A stretch of DNA of 64,000 bases from Thermoanaerobaculia bacterium (GCA_038245905.1 JBBRRY010000001.1:160001-224000), one strand, 5' to 3'; positions 16,792 through 60,630 are shown, numbered from the stretch's first letter. Made by a program: numbers and translations. The notes: a model not told the origin generated them from the letters alone.

Positions 16792-17193
16792 GACTCGGGC
16801 CGGACAGGCGGTCGCCGCTCTCGACGCTTCGGCGGAAGGAGGGGAGGAAAGTCCGGACTCCCGCGGGCAGCGTGCCGGAGAAATTCCGGTCGGGGTAACC
16901 CGAAGGAAAGTGGCACAGAGAACATACCGCCGACGCGCCGCAAGGCGCAGGTAAGGGTGAAAAGGTGCGGTAAGAGCGCACCGCGGTTCCGGCAACGGGA
17001 CTGGCAGGCGAAACCCCACGCGGAGCAAGGCCAAATAGGGTGATGGAAGGGGCGCCCGCCCTCGCGGCTTCGGCCGACGTCACCGGGTAGGTCGCTCGAG
17101 CCCGTCCGAAAGGCCGGGCCTGGAGGAATGACCGCCGGCCGGAAGGCGCGAGCCGACCGGTTACAGAATCCGGCTTATCGTCCGGCCCGAGTC
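16792..17193 (+). ncRNA. rnpB: RNase P RNA, bacterial type A
   Basis: GAGGAAAGTCCGGACT, GGTAAGGGTGAAAAGGTGCGGTAAGAGCGCAC, ACAGAATCCGGCTTA; P1 helix GACTCGGGCCGGAC/GTCCGGCCCGAGTC. Confidence 0.98.
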
Positions 17194-24110: not shown

Positions 24111-24155
24111 GAGCCGTCGTTCTTCACCTTCTAAGAAATCTTCGGTCGTTCTTCC

Positions 24156-54225: not shown

Positions 54226-55668
54226 GTGAGAGAGCCCGCGCTTCCCCGCAAGGCCCGCAGCGTCTTCGTCGAGACGTGGGGCTGTCAGATGAATGTGCTC
54301 GATGGGCGGCGATTCATAGGGCTTCTGGAGCGAGAGGGGATCGTCGAGGCCGGGACGCCGGAGGAAGCCGACGTTGTTCTGCTCAACACATGCTCGGTGC
54401 GCGACAAGGCTGAGCAGAAGGTCTACGACCGGATCGGACGACTCGCGAAACTGAAGCGTGAACGCGCGGGGATGGTCATCGGGGTTTGTGGCTGCGTGGC
54501 GCAGCAAGAAGGGGAGGACCTCCTGGAGCGCCTCCCACAAGTGGATTTCATCCTCGGGACCGGGCGCATCGAGGCTCTCCCGTCGGTGCTGCGGCGGGTC
54601 GACGAAGAAGGCGACCGACCCTGCGAGACGGGATTCGACCTGGATGAAGTCGTCTATACGCCCGGCGCCGTCGCTCACGCGGTTCCGCACCGTGCCGGGA
54701 TCACGGTGATCGAGGGCTGCAACAAGAACTGCACGTTCTGCGTCGTTCCGAGAACGCGCGGGCGCGAGCGCAATCGCCGCCTGCGTGACGTCGTGGACGA
54801 GGCGCGTTCCCTGGTAGAGGCCGGTGCCCTCGAAATCGAGCTCCTGGGGCAGACCGTGAACGCCTTCCGCGACCCAGAAACGGGCGAGGATCTCGCGGAC
54901 CTCCTGCGCGCCGTCGGCGCCCTGGCAGGAATCCGGCGCCTACGCTTCGTCACGTCCCATCCCGCTAGTTTCTCGGACCGGCTCATCGCCGCGATGAGCG
55001 AGACGCCGGCAGTCGTTCCCGCGCTCCACCTGCCCGTGCAGTCAGGCTCCGACACGGTCCTTCGGCGCATGAAACGTCAGTACACCCGGGCGGAGTACCT
55101 CGACCTCGTCGCGCGGCTCCGCGCCGCAGTTCCAGGCCTCGCACTCTCGACCGACGTCATCGTGGGGTTCCCGGGTGAGACGGAGACTGATTTCCTGGAG
55201 ACGCTTTCGCTCTTTGAAGAGGTCCGGTTTGCCGGCGTCTTCTCCTTCACGTATTCGCCGCGCCCACAGACGGCGGCGCTCAGGTGGGAGCACGACGTCA
55301 CACCGCAGGAAGCATCCGCTCGCCTGGTGCGGCTCGAGGCGCTGCAGCAGGGAGTCCAGAGGGGCCTGAACCGCGCACTTGAGGGGAGCACCCTGGAGGT
55401 GCTCGTCGAAGGCCTCGACCGCAAGCGGCGCAACTGCTCGGGCCGATCGCGCTGTGGACGCGTCGTGAACATCGCTGGCGAGCTGAACCTCGCGCCCGGC
55501 ACGCTCGTGGACGTCCGGATCGAGCGAGGATTTCCGAATTCTCTGCTCGGACGAAGACAGGAAAAGACCCGGGAAAGCGCCCAGGAAAAGATCGAAGAGG
55601 AGATTTCTTCGAAAGTGATTGGGGGCGGAGTCACGGGTGCGACGCAAGTGCTCGACTTGCTCTTGTGA
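54226..55668 (+). CDS. miaB: tRNA-2-methylthio-N6-dimethylallyladenosine synthase
   Basis: TWGCQMN, NTCSVR, CNKNCTFC, LPVQSG, TRAM domain. Confidence 0.96.
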   Translation: MREPALPRKARSVFVETWGCQMNVLDGRRFIGLLEREGIVEAGTPEEADVVLLNTCSVRDKAEQKVYDRIGRLAKLKRERAGMVIGVCGCVAQQEGEDLLERLPQVDFILGTGRIEALPSVLRRVDEEGDRPCETGFDLDEVVYTPGAVAHAVPHRAGITVIEGCNKNCTFCVVPRTRGRERNRRLRDVVDEARSLVEAGALEIELLGQTVNAFRDPETGEDLADLLRAVGALAGIRRLRFVTSHPASFSDRLIAAMSETPAVVPALHLPVQSGSDTVLRRMKRQYTRAEYLDLVARLRAAVPGLALSTDVIVGFPGETETDFLETLSLFEEVRFAGVFSFTYSPRPQTAALRWEHDVTPQEASARLVRLEALQQGVQRGLNRALEGSTLEVLVEGLDRKRRNCSGRSRCGRVVNIAGELNLAPGTLVDVRIERGFPNSLLGRRQEKTRESAQEKIEEEISSKVIGGGVTGATQVLDLLL

Positions 55669-55788
55669 ATTCTTTCCTAACTCATTCTAAGAAAATAAGT
55701 TAGATGCAGAAACGTTGCTGCTCGTTTGCGGGCTGACCTTGCTTTATCCCTTATCTCTCCCTAGATTGAGTCCGGGAGAACCCCCATT

Positions 55789-56274
55789 TTGAGCGTCCGG
55801 ATGGAAGTGAAGGCACTGATTGTGGATCCAATAGCGAACATGCCTGTCGTGATCCTGCGCGACGCGGAGGAGAAGAACTTCCTGCCGATCTGGGTCGGCG
55901 TCTTCGAAGCAAATGCGATCGCCCTCCAGATGGAAGGCATTACGACCCCCAGGCCGATGACGCACGATCTTCTGAAGAACCTCATCACACAGATAGAGGG
56001 CGACGTCCTCAGGGTCGTCATCAACAACCTCAAGGAAAATACGTTCTACGCCCAGATCCATCTTCGTGTCGCGAACCGAGACGTGCTCGTGGACAGCCGT
56101 CCCTCGGACGCGATCGCACTCGCGCTCCGGCTCGCCGCTCCCGTGTTCGTAGAAGAATCGGTTCTCGAAAAAAGCCGTAGCGGGCAAGACACCTCGGAGT
56201 CCCAGAATTCCGAGCGCCTCCGGAAGTGGTTCGAGGAAGCCGATCCGGACACGCTCGGCAAGTACCGGATGTAG
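55789..56274 (+). CDS. bifunctional nuclease family protein (DUF151)
   Basis: LPIWVG..EANAI, RPMTHDL, DSRPSDAIALA. Confidence 0.94.
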   Translation: MSVRMEVKALIVDPIANMPVVILRDAEEKNFLPIWVGVFEANAIALQMEGITTPRPMTHDLLKNLITQIEGDVLRVVINNLKENTFYAQIHLRVANRDVLVDSRPSDAIALALRLAAPVFVEESVLEKSRSGQDTSESQNSERLRKWFEEADPDTLGKYRM

Positions 56275-56346
56275 TTTTCGGAGCCGGGGAGCGAATTCGT
56301 CCTTGATGCGCTCTCGGACCCTCCGTATCATCTGCGGCTCGAGCGC

Positions 56347-57108
56347 ATGATCATCACAGTTGCGAACCAGAAAGGCGGCGTGGGAAAGACCACGACGGCG
56401 ATTAACCTCGCTGCCGCACTTGCCCAGAAGGGCCTTCGCACGCTCCTCGTCGATCTGGACCCGCAGGGGAATTCCACCATGTCCTTCCTCGACCGCAAGG
56501 ACGTGGAGAAGTCGATGTACGACGTCCTGACGGATTCGAACGTCTCGGTCTTCGACATCGTCAAGCCCACTAAGGTACCGAAGCTCACCGTCGCCCCGGC
56601 CCGCATCTCGCTCGCGAAGGTCGAGTCCAAGCTCCTCGGGGAAATCGACGGTCACTTCAGGCTGAAGGACAAGTTCCAGGTCGTGCGGGAGTCAGGGGAG
56701 TACGACGCCATCCTCATCGACACGCCACCCACTCTCGGCATGATCACGGTAAATGCGCTCGTCGCGTCCACGCACATTCTGATTCCAATCCAGTCGTCCT
56801 ACTTCGCCCTGGAGGGCACCGACGACCTGCTCGAGACGATCGAAAAAATCAAGAGCCGTCCGAACCCGAATCTCCAGATCCTCGGGGTCGTCATCACGCT
56901 TCACGACAAGCGCACGACGCTTGGAAGAGACATCCAGGGCCAGATCGACCAGGTCTTCAAAGGGAAGCTTTTCAAGACGACGATTTCGAAATCCATCCGC
57001 CTCGAGGAATCGCCCGCTTACCGAGAATCCATTTTCACTTTCGCTCCGCGTTCGTCAGGCGCGCTCGAGTATTACAGCCTGACTGAGGAGATTCTTTCCC
57101 GTGTCTAA
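56347..57108 (+). CDS. parA: ParA/Soj family ATPase
   Basis: NQKGGVGKTTT, DLDPQGN, IDTPP, RLEESP. Confidence 0.94.
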   Translation: MIITVANQKGGVGKTTTAINLAAALAQKGLRTLLVDLDPQGNSTMSFLDRKDVEKSMYDVLTDSNVSVFDIVKPTKVPKLTVAPARISLAKVESKLLGEIDGHFRLKDKFQVVRESGEYDAILIDTPPTLGMITVNALVASTHILIPIQSSYFALEGTDDLLETIEKIKSRPNPNLQILGVVITLHDKRTTLGRDIQGQIDQVFKGKLFKTTISKSIRLEESPAYRESIFTFAPRSSGALEYYSLTEEILSRV

Positions 57109-58009
57109 GCGTCGCGGTCTCCCCGAATCCTCTCGCATGCGCCACGACTCTCACTTCGTCGATCAGCTCGTCCGCGCGGACGAACTTCCCGTCGGTCGCC
57201 GAATCGCCATTCACCTCATCGAGGCGAATCCCGATCAACCCCGAAGCGTGATGGGAGATCTGGCAGAGCTCACGAAGTCAATCGTCGACAAGGGCGTCCT
57301 CGAGCCGATCCTGGTCCGCCCACGCGGCGACGGTCGCTTCACGATCATCTCCGGCGAGCGCCGGTTCCGGGCTTCGCTGGAAGCGGGACTTGCCGAGGTT
57401 CCCTGCATCGAGATGGACGTCCCTGACAACGAGCTCCTCGAGATCGCGCTCGTCGAGAATCTTCAACGCAGGGATCTCAGTCCGTTTGAAGAGGCCGAGG
57501 GCTATCGGGCACTCAAGGAACGCCATGGATATACGCACGAGCAGATTGCGGATGCCGTGGGGAAGTCGCGCGTCACGGTCACCGAGGCGCTGTCGATCGC
57601 GAGGCTTCCTGATCGCGTCCAGGCCGAATGTCGGCGCGCCGACATCGGCTCGCGTTCCTTCCTCCTGGAGCTAGGCCGCCTTAAGGATGAGGACCTCATG
57701 CTTGCCGCCGTCGCTGCGATGACGAGCGGTGACTCCATGAGCCGCGACGTTCTCCGTGAGGCAAAGAGGGACACGCGGCGAGGAGCTGTTTCGAAGAAGC
57801 TCGGAGGCCTCAAGAAAGCCTATTCACTGGACTTCACTCCTGAAGATCGGAACTACAGAGTCAGCCTCGTACTCAAGGGACGGCTCCACAAGAAGGACGA
57901 GATTCTCGAGGCGATCAGGGACCTCGCGCGCCGAATCGAGGCAGGGGACATCGATCTCGAGACGCAGGGGAAATTCGTCAGGACAAAGGCAAAGAAGAAG
58001 ACCTCATAG
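57101..58009 (+). CDS. parB: ParB/Spo0J family protein
   Basis: NPDQPR, GVLEPILV, GERRFRA, ALVENLQR, HTH THEQIADAVGKSR. Confidence 0.93.
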   Translation: MSKRRGLPESSRMRHDSHFVDQLVRADELPVGRRIAIHLIEANPDQPRSVMGDLAELTKSIVDKGVLEPILVRPRGDGRFTIISGERRFRASLEAGLAEVPCIEMDVPDNELLEIALVENLQRRDLSPFEEAEGYRALKERHGYTHEQIADAVGKSRVTVTEALSIARLPDRVQAECRRADIGSRSFLLELGRLKDEDLMLAAVAAMTSGDSMSRDVLREAKRDTRRGAVSKKLGGLKKAYSLDFTPEDRNYRVSLVLKGRLHKKDEILEAIRDLARRIEAGDIDLETQGKFVRTKAKKKTS

Positions 58010-58170
58010 GAAGACAGAACAGAGGCACCAGGCCAGCTCGCCGCCCGCCGCGCCCTCTCAGTCAAATCGCCGTGCGCTTTCATTAACGCCTTCAAATTCC
58101 CTTTCTAAGAAAACCCCTAATGCCCTTTTCCTTCCGCGCGCCTAATGATTTCATGTCTTGTAATTCTGAT

Positions 58171-58198
58171 ATTTAACATAATAAATCTTATCGGACCT
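58171..58198 (-). other. dif: dif site (XerC/XerD chromosome dimer resolution site)
   Basis: Minus strand AGGTCCGATAA-GATTTA-TTATGTTAAAT: exact E. coli XerD arm, 6-bp spacer, XerC-like arm; intergenic. Confidence 0.92.
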
Positions 58199-58242
58199 TG
58201 TGTTCTGGCCTCGGAATGAGAGCGCTTCGGCTACGATCTGCC

Positions 58243-60555
58243 GTGCTCTCGCGCTTGAATCGCTACGTCTTCCTGGAAGTAGCCGGTCCCACGGTCATAG
58301 GCTTCCTCGCGTACACCGGCTTCATGGCGGTACGAGGGCTGGTGCAGTTTTCCGAGCTCCTCGTCCAGAGCGAGCGCCCGTTCGCCGAAGCAGGTCTCGT
58401 GGTAGCGCTCTCGCTCCCGCACATCGTGGTTCTCACGCTGCCCGTCGCGTTCCTTCTCGGACTCCTCATCGGCATCGGCCGCCTCTCGGCTGACTCCGAG
58501 CTGACTGCCCTTCGAGCCTCGGGCGTCGATCTTCTCGTGCTCTATCGCCCGATCGGGGTGCTCGCGACCGTCACTGCCGGCGTGACCCTCGTCCTGATGC
58601 TCACCGTCGTCCCCCGCACGAATCACCTTCTGTATGCCATGAAGCTTCGCCTCTCGAGCTTTGCATTCGCCCAGAGAATCCAGCCGGGCGTGTTCAGCCC
58701 GGAGATCGCCGGCTTGCGCGTCTACGCCGAAGGGGCGTCTCCGGACCGGCGCGAGCTCACCGGGCTCATTATCTCGGACCGTTCCAATCCCGAAGGGGCT
58801 GAGTTGACGCTCGCGCGGCGCGGCTGGCTCGAGCTCGAGGAGGAGCAGGGCCGCTTGTGGCTCCGGGTAGAGGACGCGGAGCGGCACCACCTCTCGGAGG
58901 ACGGGCGGCGATACGACGTCACCTCGTTCTCCCGGCAGCGCATGGTCCTGCAAGACAACGGACCGACCCTTGGCGTCTCCGAAAAGCAGATCCGGGAGCA
59001 GACCCTCCGCGAGCTGCTGGACCGAGCCTCCGCCCGGGCGCGCCGCCCCGAGGACCGGCGACTCGCCCTCACCGAGGTCCACAAGAAGTTCGCGCTCCCG
59101 GCAGCCTGCCTCGTCTTCGGTCTGATCGGGCTCCCCCTCGGAATCGTCAACCGGCGAGGCGGCCGCGCGGCCGGGTTTGCGGTGTCGATCGGGATCGTGC
59201 TCTTCTACTACGCTCTCCTCGCCACGGGCGAGGCCCGCGCCATCGAAGGCCGCATGTCGCCCGCTCTCGCCATGTGGTTGCCAAACCTCCTGCTTCTCGG
59301 CTTCGGCGCATACGCCCTGGCTCGCGTGCGGCGCGACAAGAGCATCGTCGCCCTCCCCTTCAGGACGTCGCTCGTCGCCACCCGTGCCGAGATCTTGGGC
59401 CCCGGCTCGATCGCCGCCTCCGCTCCGATCGAACGCCCAGTCGCGACGCCCGGCCGCCGCGCTTCCCTGCCGGGCCTCCTTCTCGTTGACCGTTACATCG
59501 CAAGGCGATTTCTCGGCGTCTTCGTTCTCGTCGTGGCCTCGATCGCGACTCTGTACATGCTGATCGACTACCTCGAGATTTCAGACGACATCGCGCGCCA
59601 TCGGCCACCGACGTCCTTGATCCTCCGTTACGTCCAGGCTTCGCTCTCCCCCATCGTTCTGGCCATCGTGCCGTTCGCCTTCCTCGTCGCGGCCCTCGTC
59701 ACGGTTGCGAGCCTCGTGCGCTCGGCCGAGACGACCGCTCTCCTGGCGCACGGCGTTTCTCTCTACCGGACGACGGCCCCGATTCTCGTCCTCGCCGTGA
59801 TCGCAGGAGGCCTCCTCTTCCTCTTCGCCGAGCGCATCGTCCCGACGGCCGCCTCCGAAGCCGATCGACTCAGGTTCCTGTTGAAGGGACAGACGCCACC
59901 TGCAAGCAACGCCGGCGGTGTCTGGTTCCGCGGCGACGCGGGGCGTTTCTATTCCGCGGACGCCTACGACCCCGCGTCGCGCATCGCCGTCGGCGTGACG
60001 GTCTTTCAGATCGATCCGTCGACCTGGAGGCTTGTCTCCCGTCACGACGCGGCACGGGCACGCCTCGCCCCTGGGAAAGGCCTCCTCGCGGAGGACGGGT
60101 GGATCCGTACGTTCACCGAGGGCCATACTCTCGCCATCCGGCGCGACGGCCCGTTCTTCATCGATTCTCCCGAATCCGCGGCCGGATTCGTCTCTGGCCG
60201 GGCGGACCCACGCCAGATGACCTACCGCGAGCTGGCGCGCTTCATCGAGGTGCGGCGCCGGGCGGGTGCCGACACGGCGATGCTCGCGACCGGGCTGCAC
60301 CAGAAGACCGCTGGGGCGGCTTCCGCACTTCTCCTGACACTCGTCGGGCTTCCCTTCGCGTTCGCGTACGGAAAGCGAGGCGCCGTCGCGGGCGTCGGCA
60401 TCGCGCTGTTCCTTGGCCTGACCTACCTGTTCCTGTCCGCGCTCCTCGTTTCGTTCGGCGAGCAGGGAGCCATTCCACCCCTCATCGCGGCATGGGCGCC
60501 GAACGTGTTCTTCGGGCTCGGGGCGGCGTGGGGGCTTTTGGGGGTCAGGACGTAA
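58243..60555 (+). CDS. fused LptF-LptG LPS export permease (start 58216 or 58243)
   Basis: Two YjgP/YjgQ halves: GRLSADSELTALRASG..MWLPN and DRYI..SAETTALLAHG..AWAPN. Confidence 0.9.
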   Translation: MLSRLNRYVFLEVAGPTVIGFLAYTGFMAVRGLVQFSELLVQSERPFAEAGLVVALSLPHIVVLTLPVAFLLGLLIGIGRLSADSELTALRASGVDLLVLYRPIGVLATVTAGVTLVLMLTVVPRTNHLLYAMKLRLSSFAFAQRIQPGVFSPEIAGLRVYAEGASPDRRELTGLIISDRSNPEGAELTLARRGWLELEEEQGRLWLRVEDAERHHLSEDGRRYDVTSFSRQRMVLQDNGPTLGVSEKQIREQTLRELLDRASARARRPEDRRLALTEVHKKFALPAACLVFGLIGLPLGIVNRRGGRAAGFAVSIGIVLFYYALLATGEARAIEGRMSPALAMWLPNLLLLGFGAYALARVRRDKSIVALPFRTSLVATRAEILGPGSIAASAPIERPVATPGRRASLPGLLLVDRYIARRFLGVFVLVVASIATLYMLIDYLEISDDIARHRPPTSLILRYVQASLSPIVLAIVPFAFLVAALVTVASLVRSAETTALLAHGVSLYRTTAPILVLAVIAGGLLFLFAERIVPTAASEADRLRFLLKGQTPPASNAGGVWFRGDAGRFYSADAYDPASRIAVGVTVFQIDPSTWRLVSRHDAARARLAPGKGLLAEDGWIRTFTEGHTLAIRRDGPFFIDSPESAAGFVSGRADPRQMTYRELARFIEVRRRAGADTAMLATGLHQKTAGAASALLLTLVGLPFAFAYGKRGAVAGVGIALFLGLTYLFLSALLVSFGEQGAIPPLIAAWAPNVFFGLGAAWGLLGVRT

Positions 60556-60620
60556 AGAGGATTTTCTTAGAAGGTGCCCGTGCTCCCGACCACTCTTCCC
60601 TTCTAAGAAATCCTCCTCTT
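60555..60620. repeat. inverted pair of the dispersed TTCTWAGAA motif between convergent genes
   Basis: GGATTTTCTTAGAAGG (60559) ... CCTTCTAAGAAATCC (60599). Confidence 0.85.
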
Positions 60621-60630
60621 CGTCTTCGTC

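Follow-up and report, generated by a model that had tools for sequence, protein, structure and literature searches.

The stretch of DNA described here, called the window, is 64,000 nt long (C1:160001-224000 in the assembly GCA_038245905.1 of a Thermoanaerobaculia bacterium, hereafter G000) and carries in one block miaB, a gene with a BFN/DUF151 domain, parA2, parB2, a dif site and a fused lptF-lptG gene. The assembly consists of 113 contigs (3.80 Mb, 67% G + C, 96% complete), and its nearest public relatives carry the labels Acidobacteriota and Thermoanaerobaculia. ParABS is the textbook machine of origin segregation, and the handling of the replication terminus is known chiefly from MatP/matS in the enterobacteria and from FtsK with its orienting polar sequences (KOPS). 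This article discusses the parA2-parB2 pair, for which we favor with moderate confidence the interpretation that it is a second ParABS-type system, paralogous to the one at the origin and devoted to the replication terminus, with a 16-bp palindrome inside parB2 as the nucleation site of ParB2. A first-pass annotation of the same DNA had proposed a terminus-linked ParA-ParB system beside dif, bracketed by copies of a motif, TTCTWAGAA, on which ParB might load; as described below, the system is upheld and the motif is replaced by the palindrome.

Gene Order at the Locus

The block DUF151-parA-parB and the end of parB at 58009, both given in the first-pass annotation, agree with the open reading frames (ORFs) and the Pfam matches (Table 1). 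The GTG start codon of parB2 lies within parA2, the two genes overlapping by 8 nt at the stop of parA2, and they are translationally coupled.

Table 1. Features of the parA2-parB2-dif locus, in window coordinates
Feature	Position	Strand	Remarks
miaB	54226-55668		ORF and family match
One-mismatch repeat copy, TTCTTCGAA	55605-55613	n/a	3' end of miaB
Exact repeat copy, TTCTAAGAA	55685-55693		miaB-BFN spacer; genome-wide repeat, not specific to the system
BFN/DUF151-domain gene	55789-56274	+	161 aa; true start possibly ATG at 55801; Pfam support
Sigma-70-like promoter match, TTGATG-17-TATCAT	56303-56331	+	Upstream of parA2; consensus match only
parA2	56347-57108	+	253 aa; Soj-type deviant Walker A ATPase; Pfam support
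parB2	57101-58009	+	302 aa; GTG start; ParB_N domain, partial HTH_ParB match
Candidate parS2 palindrome, TGTCGGCGCGCCGACA	57629-57644	n/a	Inside parB2, 527 nt from dif
Spacer parB2-lptFG	58010-58197		188 nt; contains dif
Exact repeat copy, TTCTAAGAA	58103-58111		parB2-dif spacer; genome-wide repeat
dif	58171-58198	-	11-6-11 Xer site, 28 nt, 162 nt past the parB2 stop
Fused lptF-lptG permease gene (lipopolysaccharide export)	58198-60555	+	785 aa; conserved downstream neighbor of dif
26-nt inverted repeat	60549-60574 / 60599-60624		Between convergent lptFG and ahcY; holds repeat copies 60564 and 60601

The dif Site and the Replication Terminus

The dif site lies where the first-pass annotation had placed it. 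Its 11-nt XerD arm has no second copy in the 3.8-Mb assembly, also when one mismatch is allowed; moreover, no other 28-mer of the whole assembly comes within 9 mismatches of the site and the core pattern is unique, that is, no second dif-like site was found there. The XerD arm is the 11-mer that ends the row of Escherichia coli K12 dif, and many other proteobacterial rows too, in the table of PMC2731167. In accordance with the criteria of that paper, the site is non-coding, low in G + C (7/28, 25%), palindromic in its inner arms and located at the skew terminus. In addition, XerD (above the cut-off), an XerC-like gene and an FtsK carrying a gamma domain are found at other places in the genome. 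On these features the site can be assigned to the XerCD chromosome-dimer resolution sites.

The raw GC skew, whose maximum on C1 lies near 150 kb, was discarded as an indicator of the terminus. It is confounded by gene strand, so a strand-corrected model was used instead, namely a weighted regression including gene strand with a change-point on C1. The corrected change-point falls at 216-218 kb, which corresponds to 56-58 kb of the window, with positive skew to the left and negative skew to the right, as at a terminus. The possibility that oriC lies here, which would have told against the first-pass annotation, is made unlikely by this polarity. The word GGGNAGGG, which we take to be of the KOPS type, occurs 31:7 (+:-) to the left of dif and 8:18 to the right, and the most polar 8-mer found de novo on C1, the G-rich CGGGGGAG, occurs 25:2 and 0:13, respectively; the latter is a candidate FtsK-orienting word for this lineage. 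The joint cumulative polarity of the two words peaks at 213,442-221,954, around dif at C1 218,171-218,198. The called genes on C1 switch here as well, lying on the + strand until 220.6 kb and on the - strand beyond. Furthermore, in relatives with a closed or nearly closed chromosome the distance from ParB2 to the origin ParB is close to half of the circle (0.498 in G022, 0.490 in G027, 0.472 in G122, 0.469 in G102 and 0.453 in G073). The locus is the replication terminus.

Two ParAB Pairs in One Genome

Two genes with a ParB_N domain are present in the genome, parB2 on C1 and another one at C3:52507-53370. The order on C3 is gyrA-gyrB-recF-dnaN-dnaA (dnaA, C3:43604-44917), followed by the divergent rnpA-yidD-yidC-mnmE-mnmG-rsmG-parA-parB-bactofilin. 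The assembly contains a single canonical parS with at most two mismatches, which is perfect and constitutes the first codons of the C3 parA. Within the 64-kb window there is no canonical parS within three mismatches, and the first-pass annotation had likewise seen none. The oriC-linked parAB with canonical parS that it recommended looking for is thus found on C3, beside dnaA and rsmG, and its proposal of a second, ter-located ParAB beside dif holds in view of this origin system, the terminus-type skew and the conserved linkage to dif described next. At the origin locus (L006, C3:51692-53744) the bactofilin gene has a 4-nt overlap with the stop of the origin parB, an arrangement reminiscent of a link between bactofilin and ParABS that has reportedly been described in Myxococcus.

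The distribution of the second pair was followed in an order-level sample (31 genomes of 3 families and 8 genera, G000 among them), in class-level loci (the best 80 of at least 559 ParB2 matches confirmed by ParB2-specific peptide patterns, one genome per species) and in an evenly drawn phylum sample (151 Acidobacteriota genomes of 60 families). Unpublished genomes (G019, G024 or G078) are included in the order, phylum, dif-linkage, palindrome and BFN tallies, and no claim hangs on those alone. All 31 genomes from the order combine a canonical ParB (about E 1e-30) with an ortholog of ParB2 (48-92% identity). They retain the arrangement BFN-parA2-parB2-dif-lptFG; dif follows parB2 in 29 of 30 loci, and the sole locus without dif stops at a contig edge. 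At class level, dif lies downstream of parB2 in 77/80 loci and the other three end with their contig; these best 80 matches are all from Acidobacteriota metagenome-assembled genomes, one of which is labelled otherwise. A ParB2-type match, defined as E <=1e-68 against the ParB2 profile, was obtained in 89 of the 151 phylum genomes and in 40 of the 60 families, other genomes giving 1e-22 to 1e-46 or none, and one partial match being ambiguous. Where dif and parB2 are on one contig (32 genomes), they are at most 1 kb apart in 28 genomes and 1.5-6 kb apart in 4. The synteny of parAB and dif across the Acidobacteriota, suggested earlier as a check, is therefore conserved in a large part of the phylum.

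A ParB phylogeny, also suggested earlier, gave a clear separation. In a maximum-likelihood tree of Acidobacteriota rows only, from which rows of unpublished genomes were omitted and which has no outgroup from other phyla, ParB2 (37 rows) is separated from the origin-type ParB (ParB1, 15 rows) by a long branch with 100% support in the Shimodaira-Hasegawa-like approximate likelihood ratio test (SH-aLRT). ParB2 is evidently a separate, old clade.

The ParA2 and ParB2 Proteins

ParA2 has the deviant Walker A motif NQKGGVGKTT, matches Pfam AAA_31 at 9.8e-57 and shares 40% identity with the ParA of the origin locus. Among solved structures it comes closest to a ParA (8ray, E 5e-53) and to Soj of Thermus thermophilus (1wcv, E 1e-50), and, as expected of a ParABS system, it is a Soj-type ParA without an N-terminal helix-turn-helix (HTH). 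With 14 orthologs drawn from other Acidobacteriota families it shares 64-83% identity, and the sequence is under strong constraint. Arg189 and Arg218, presumably the non-specific DNA-binding arginines of Bacillus subtilis Soj, are kept.

ParB2 matches ParB_N at 6.6e-26 and contains NPDQPR, GERRFRA (residues 85-91, in accordance with the first-pass annotation) and ENLQRRDL. These CTP motifs do not vary among 8 orthologs and are conserved to at least 90% in 37 sequences from across the phylum, and ParB2, possessing the CTP-binding motifs that characterize ParB in ParABS, is predicted to bind CTP. The HTH_ParB match (9.9e-15) is partial, covering positions 2-63 of 102; residues 34-213 align to T. 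thermophilus Spo0J (1vz0). Both agree with the helix-turn-helix DNA-binding domain of a ParABS ParB. The recognition helix, SRVTVTEALSI, is altered as had been annotated. A profile-profile alignment of ParB2 with origin ParBs extends over residues 31-215 only, and neither the N-terminal nor the C-terminal part aligns with canonical ParB. The origin ParB has a Pfam ParB_C match and ParB2 has none. At the place of the ParA-activating peptide of canonical ParB, ParB2 carries a basic N-terminal peptide, MSKRRGLP..RMRHDSHFV.

In PMC7383237 it is described that Arg173 and Gly201 (Caulobacter numbering) are absolutely conserved in ParB orthologs, that Arg173 reads guanine 1 of the half-site, that Asn178 is conserved in ParB and Noc alike, and that a non-Gly residue in the segment G201-H-A-R204 lets Noc read cytosine 6. 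ParB2 keeps GKSR including the guanine-1-reading Arg, and the palindrome keeps that G (TGT...). Asn178 is changed to Glu, which is again invariant in the 8 orthologs and at least 90% conserved in the 37 sequences. ParB2 has S-(K/R)-S, of altered length, in place of the segment G201-H-A-R204, the residue equivalence being tentative at this indel, and the half-site of the palindrome has C at position 6. ParB2 therefore retains the Arg of the parS-specifying set (Arg173 + Gly201) as described in that source and, so far as the tentative equivalence goes, lacks the rest. The agreement between this residue code and the bases of the palindrome is suggestive, with an indel in the alignment.

Such proteins might also serve as a division-site or cell-cycle regulator: the ParB2-palindrome complex would mark ter, and either ParA2 would act on FtsZ or the divisome in the way of MipZ or PomZ, or ParB2 would do so in the way of Noc. 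There is some room for such a regulator in these bacteria. MatP (PF06303) has no match in the 96%-complete G000 assembly, the control matching E. coli; MinD gives no match above the cut-off in G000; and MinC_C (PF03775) was found neither in G000 nor in any of the 151 Acidobacteriota genomes, so that division-site choice and ter handling are left unexplained. In addition, the score of ParB2 on the Noc model TIGR04285 (143.3 bits) is as good as that on the generic ParB model (141 bits). The Noc score, however, is far under the cut-off of 315 bits, the origin ParB reaching 223 bits, and ParA2 is far nearer to Soj, with the E values given above, than to MipZ (2e-6). A complementary distribution of Min and ParB2 was considered and rejected, as it gave no signal, MinC being missing everywhere in the sample. 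Min is missing also where ParB2 is missing, and its absence therefore does not discriminate between these readings.

The 16-bp Palindrome as Candidate parS2

A screen of the 80 class-level loci for shared palindromes gave TGTCGGCGCGCCGACA, which occurs as an exact 16-mer in 75/80 loci at the same position inside parB2. It is a perfect palindrome with the arms TGTCGGC-NN-GCCGACA and encodes C-R-R-A-D in parB2. In the G000 genome it is unique at 0-1 mismatches, and two 2-mismatch matches elsewhere look like chance.

The codons of the palindrome are nearly invariant over the 80 loci (TGT 1.00, CGG 1.00, CGC 0.97, GCC 1.00 and GAC 1.00), and in comparison columns the commonest codon of other conserved Arg or Ala accounts for 0.34-0.72, while another conserved Cys is TGC at 0.97. 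In other families the palindrome is located outside the gene, namely downstream of parB2 (L131 and L132), in the BFN-parA2 spacer (L138, L141 and, in two copies, L146) or upstream of BFN (L145). The in-gene codons of the families with an extragenic palindrome drift, Cys going to TGC and Asp to Gly, Asn or Glu. Moreover, the central two bases vary (CG, CC/GG, CA/TG and AT) and the 7-nt arms are fixed. The pattern TGTCGGCNNGCCGACA is present in 64 of the 151 phylum genomes, that is, in 63/89 ParB2-positive and 1/62 ParB2-negative genomes, or, by family, in 33/40 versus 1/20, and the reversed pattern used as a control matches in 4/151 genomes. Because of the frozen codons, the relocation with drift, the fixed arms with a variable center and the co-occurrence, selection acts on the DNA itself and not only on the peptide C-R-R-A-D.

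The site lies inside parB2 or at most 1 kb off in 53 of the 61 ParB2-positive genomes with listed positions, and at 5-10 kb in 2 genomes. The closed chromosome of G138 (6.5 Mb) carries five perfect and two one-mismatch copies at 875,554-1,005,002, centered on parB2/dif; these make up seven of its nine matches with at most one mismatch, the other two being one-mismatch matches outside this span of about 130 kb. The arrangement corresponds to a centromere cluster rather than to an operator. It also bears on the division regulator introduced above, as a Noc-type factor needs sites spread over the genome whereas the sites here are single or clustered at ter; considering the protein scores as well, a division regulator is unlikely.

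The position of the site may also be taken to mean that ParB2 acts on DNA transactions at dif, gating or promoting recombination by XerCD-FtsK, or else loading SMC-type condensins at the terminus or removing them. The distance of 527 nt between the site and dif suits such an action, and a spreading clamp would cover dif, since dif is within 1 kb of parB2 in 28/32 genomes; XerD, the XerC-like gene and the FtsK gamma domain are encoded as well. A dedicated and conserved Soj-type ParA2, kept at the identity given above in 14 orthologs, would however be superfluous for this role, and the sites are 44-51 kb from parB2 in some lineages, which leaves direct action at dif very unlikely.

The TTCTWAGAA Repeat

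TTCTWAGAA is strongly enriched in the window, with 6 copies versus 0.09 expected and none of 100 shuffles reaching 6; the exact copies begin at 24129, 25579, 55685, 58103, 60564 and 60601. Four of the exact copies fall in a 5-kb stretch that contains the operon and dif, and in the version of the first-pass annotation ParB2 would load on the copies bracketing them. The inverted pairs reported there are partly real: 60564/60601 is a true pair in a 26-nt inverted repeat, and 55605 (one mismatch)/55685 is likewise present, but the partner claimed at 57997 is a purine-rich stretch with no copy within 2 mismatches.

The bracketing is not a feature of the locus, as G000 has 149 copies of TTCTWAGAA on many contigs. 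In a congener, 273 copies are distributed along the chromosome. The counts are 2 and 1 in genomes of two other genera from the order, and 1 and 0 in two from other families; all four retain ParB2, its helix, the operon and dif. Near the operon, copies occur only in same-genus loci, with variable offsets and orientations; none was found at the 12 loci L025-L036, of which 11 belong to other genera, and copies are missing in 62 of the 80 class-level loci. The conservation of ParB2, its helix, the operon and dif reaches well past the genus, into other genera and classes, and for this reason TTCTWAGAA cannot be the conserved ParB2 site and was rejected. Loading of ParB2 on this genome-wide but genus-confined repeat is given next to no credence. 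The separate 16-bp palindrome carries the expected signature and is the better candidate for the centromere of ParB2.

The oriented consensus of the 149 copies extends over about 30 nt and consists of a purine-rich run, then TTTCTTAGAAGG, then K-R-AAGAGG, with asymmetric flanks. Eighteen of the 19 pairs less than 300 nt apart are convergent, and their inner sequence is unrelated and GC-rich. The element thus behaves like an intergenic element of the repetitive extragenic palindromic (REP) type, which again speaks against ParB2 loading, or it is possibly similar to an uptake sequence. A gene caller that over-calls (92% coding) labelled 95 of the 149 copies as in-gene, a label that is unreliable except in clear cases such as alaS. 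The alaS gene holds three copies, which encode Leu-Arg with rare codons.

BFN and the Origin of the Cassette

The BFN gene is single-copy in 136/151 phylum genomes, ParB2-negative ones included, and is linked to dif phylum-wide. Its product has a C-terminal tail conserved across the phylum, RLRKWLEE..P..LGKY.M (also given as RLRKW.EE..P..LGKY.M). As a dedicated third component of the system BFN was rejected because of this distribution. In the ParB2-negative genomes G140 (C1:1265983-1266516), G104 (C18:51223-52094), G048 (C11:47418-49170) and G108 (C8:55792-57579), BFN adjoins dif at a distance of 0.2-1.5 kb. The BFN-dif linkage is therefore conserved in its own right, and the parA2-parB2 cassette, where present, sits exactly at the BFN/dif junction.

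This junction is where an Xer-integrated element would land, and the phylum-wide presence or absence of the cassette there is compatible with an ancient event of this kind. The cassette might accordingly be thought a domesticated relic of a plasmid-like element integrated by Xer at dif, with the palindrome mainly an autoregulatory operator and no chromosome-level function today. In favor of a relic are the placement exactly between BFN and dif and the position of BFN directly beside dif in the above four genomes without ParB2. On the other hand, the assembly has no second dif-like site. The integrative mobile elements exploiting Xer (IMEX) are bounded by two such sites and vary among close relatives, whereas here one dif-like site is present and the cassette occurs in 31/31 genomes of the order. 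Across the phylum it is fixed with conserved flanks in 40/60 families, with a strongly constrained ParA2. A plasmid origin by close homology was also rejected, nothing being above 41% identity: among the 12 records listed, the closest plasmid ParBs are 30-41% identical (best E 2e-27), a weaker match than the own origin ParB of the cell. Finally, the 130-kb site cluster of G138 is not an operator. A mere relic is quite unlikely, and such an integration may account for where the cassette came from while leaving room for a function today.

Proposed Function

As described above, a second ParABS-type system at the terminus, with the palindrome as its centromere, is the interpretation favored here, and its positive evidence is the terminus position, the separate ParB2 clade, the conserved linkage to dif and the selection on the palindrome. 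In such a system ParB2 would nucleate on the palindrome and not on TTCTWAGAA or canonical parS. With its CTP motifs kept and its DNA-reading surface remodelled, it would form a closed CTP clamp and spread across the region of dif. The nucleoid-bound Soj-type ParA2 would then act on the ParB2 complex as on a plasmid-like cargo. A single unreplicated terminus would be held in the middle of the nucleoid, the position at which dif is acted on by FtsK and XerCD, and after replication the two sister termini would be moved apart, as two cargos separate. These steps are modelled on the behavior of the families. We infer from them the positioning or segregation of the dif region as the function; positioning of the terminus or coordination of division, the roles first suggested, is plausible. 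In a wider form, the Acidobacteriota would possess a 'terminus centromere', in which ParA2, ParB2 and the TGTCGGC-NN-GCCGACA sites put dif at mid-cell and part the sister termini, and which is maybe a captured plasmid cassette at dif; to this wider form we give about as much belief as doubt.

Several observations weigh against the interpretation. The C-terminal ~85 residues of ParB2 match neither Pfam ParB_C nor the canonical ParB profile, and dimerization and clamp behavior of ParB2 are consequently assumptions. The skew evidence comes from one 347-kb contig out of 113. In 8 further ParB2-positive genomes the best dif-like match is on another contig than parB2. As to the palindrome, its exact pattern is missing in 26 of the 89 ParB2-positive genomes, some of which have one-mismatch copies near the operon; in family f5 the site is 44-51 kb from parB2 on the same contig; and 2 genomes have the site and parB2 on separate contigs. 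For the single site in G000, an autoregulatory operator is an equally good explanation. Lastly, the co-occurrence counts make the association look more significant than it is, because related genomes are not independent observations.

Comparison with Known Systems

Chromosomal ParABS (Soj/Spo0J-parS) is similar in its Soj-type ParA, in its ParB with an N-terminal basic peptide, CTP motifs and HTH, and in its 16-bp palindrome with outer TGT...ACA that lies in or next to the par genes and forms clusters of several sites in some genomes. Unlike it, ParAB2 is encoded next to dif at the terminus, in a genome that has a canonical origin system as well; it is not origin-proximal by the switch of skew and KOPS-like words and by its distance of 0.45-0.50 circle from the origin ParB. 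The candidate inner half-site of ParB2 is CGGC versus TTCA in parS, and the helix of ParB2 has Thr-Glu versus the canonical Ala-Asn, with G-H-A-R remodelled and both termini unaligned.

Noc sites are rare near ter and scattered over the chromosome, and Noc of the Firmicutes has no dedicated ParA, whereas ParB2 is encoded with a ParA whose gene overlaps its own and has 1-7 candidate sites at ter (one in G000, a ter cluster in G138). Noc/NBS resembles the ParB2 system as a ParB paralog with a new palindromic specificity and CTP motifs kept, and the specificity change of Noc maps to the same helix and adjacent segment as in ParB2, according to PMC7383237. MatP/matS of the enterobacteria is similar as a sequence-specific protein with palindromic sites around dif that ties the terminus to the division plane, but it belongs to an unrelated family without an ATPase/CTPase motor, and MatP was not found in G000. 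MipZ-ParB of Caulobacter and PomXYZ of Myxococcus share the use of a ParA-family ATPase with a ParB or nucleoid landmark to organize division; ParA2 is nearer to Soj, and those systems use the origin ParB or none. IMEX-type Xer-integrated elements with par genes are alike in that their par genes adjoin dif, as is the presence or absence of the cassette at the BFN/dif junction. They differ in that the ParAB2 cassette has no second dif-like site, is fixed with housekeeping flanks in many families and has no close plasmid relative.

In the literature within reach, subscription journals and supplements lying outside it, no description was found of a terminus-linked ParABS, of the palindrome or of DUF151 together with ParAB. 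If the interpretation is true, this would be the first ParABS known on ter instead of ori, in a phylum without detected MinC (0/151) and, in G000, without a MatP match, and the same motor would have been re-used for the opposite pole of the chromosome, with the cassette beside dif in 40/60 families. ParB2 would be a natural second example, after Noc, of a rewritten ParB specificity. The arrangement may show how Acidobacteriota treat the chromosome end at division, and it offers a testable handle on the coordination of division and terminus in a large and poorly studied soil phylum, as site and protein can be tested in a heterologous host.

Other Features of the Window

The fusion of LptF and LptG is seen from the NCBIfam equivalogs, which both exceed their cut-offs, one on each half of the 785-aa protein. 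The ahcY gene, on the opposite strand, is convergent to lptFG, and the 60549/60599 hairpin between them, the only find of a repeat search around the operon, is REP-like or terminator-like. A terminator scan performed no better than chance. The sole match at the Rfam gathering score in the window is a class A RNase P RNA (16796-17193, 264 bits).

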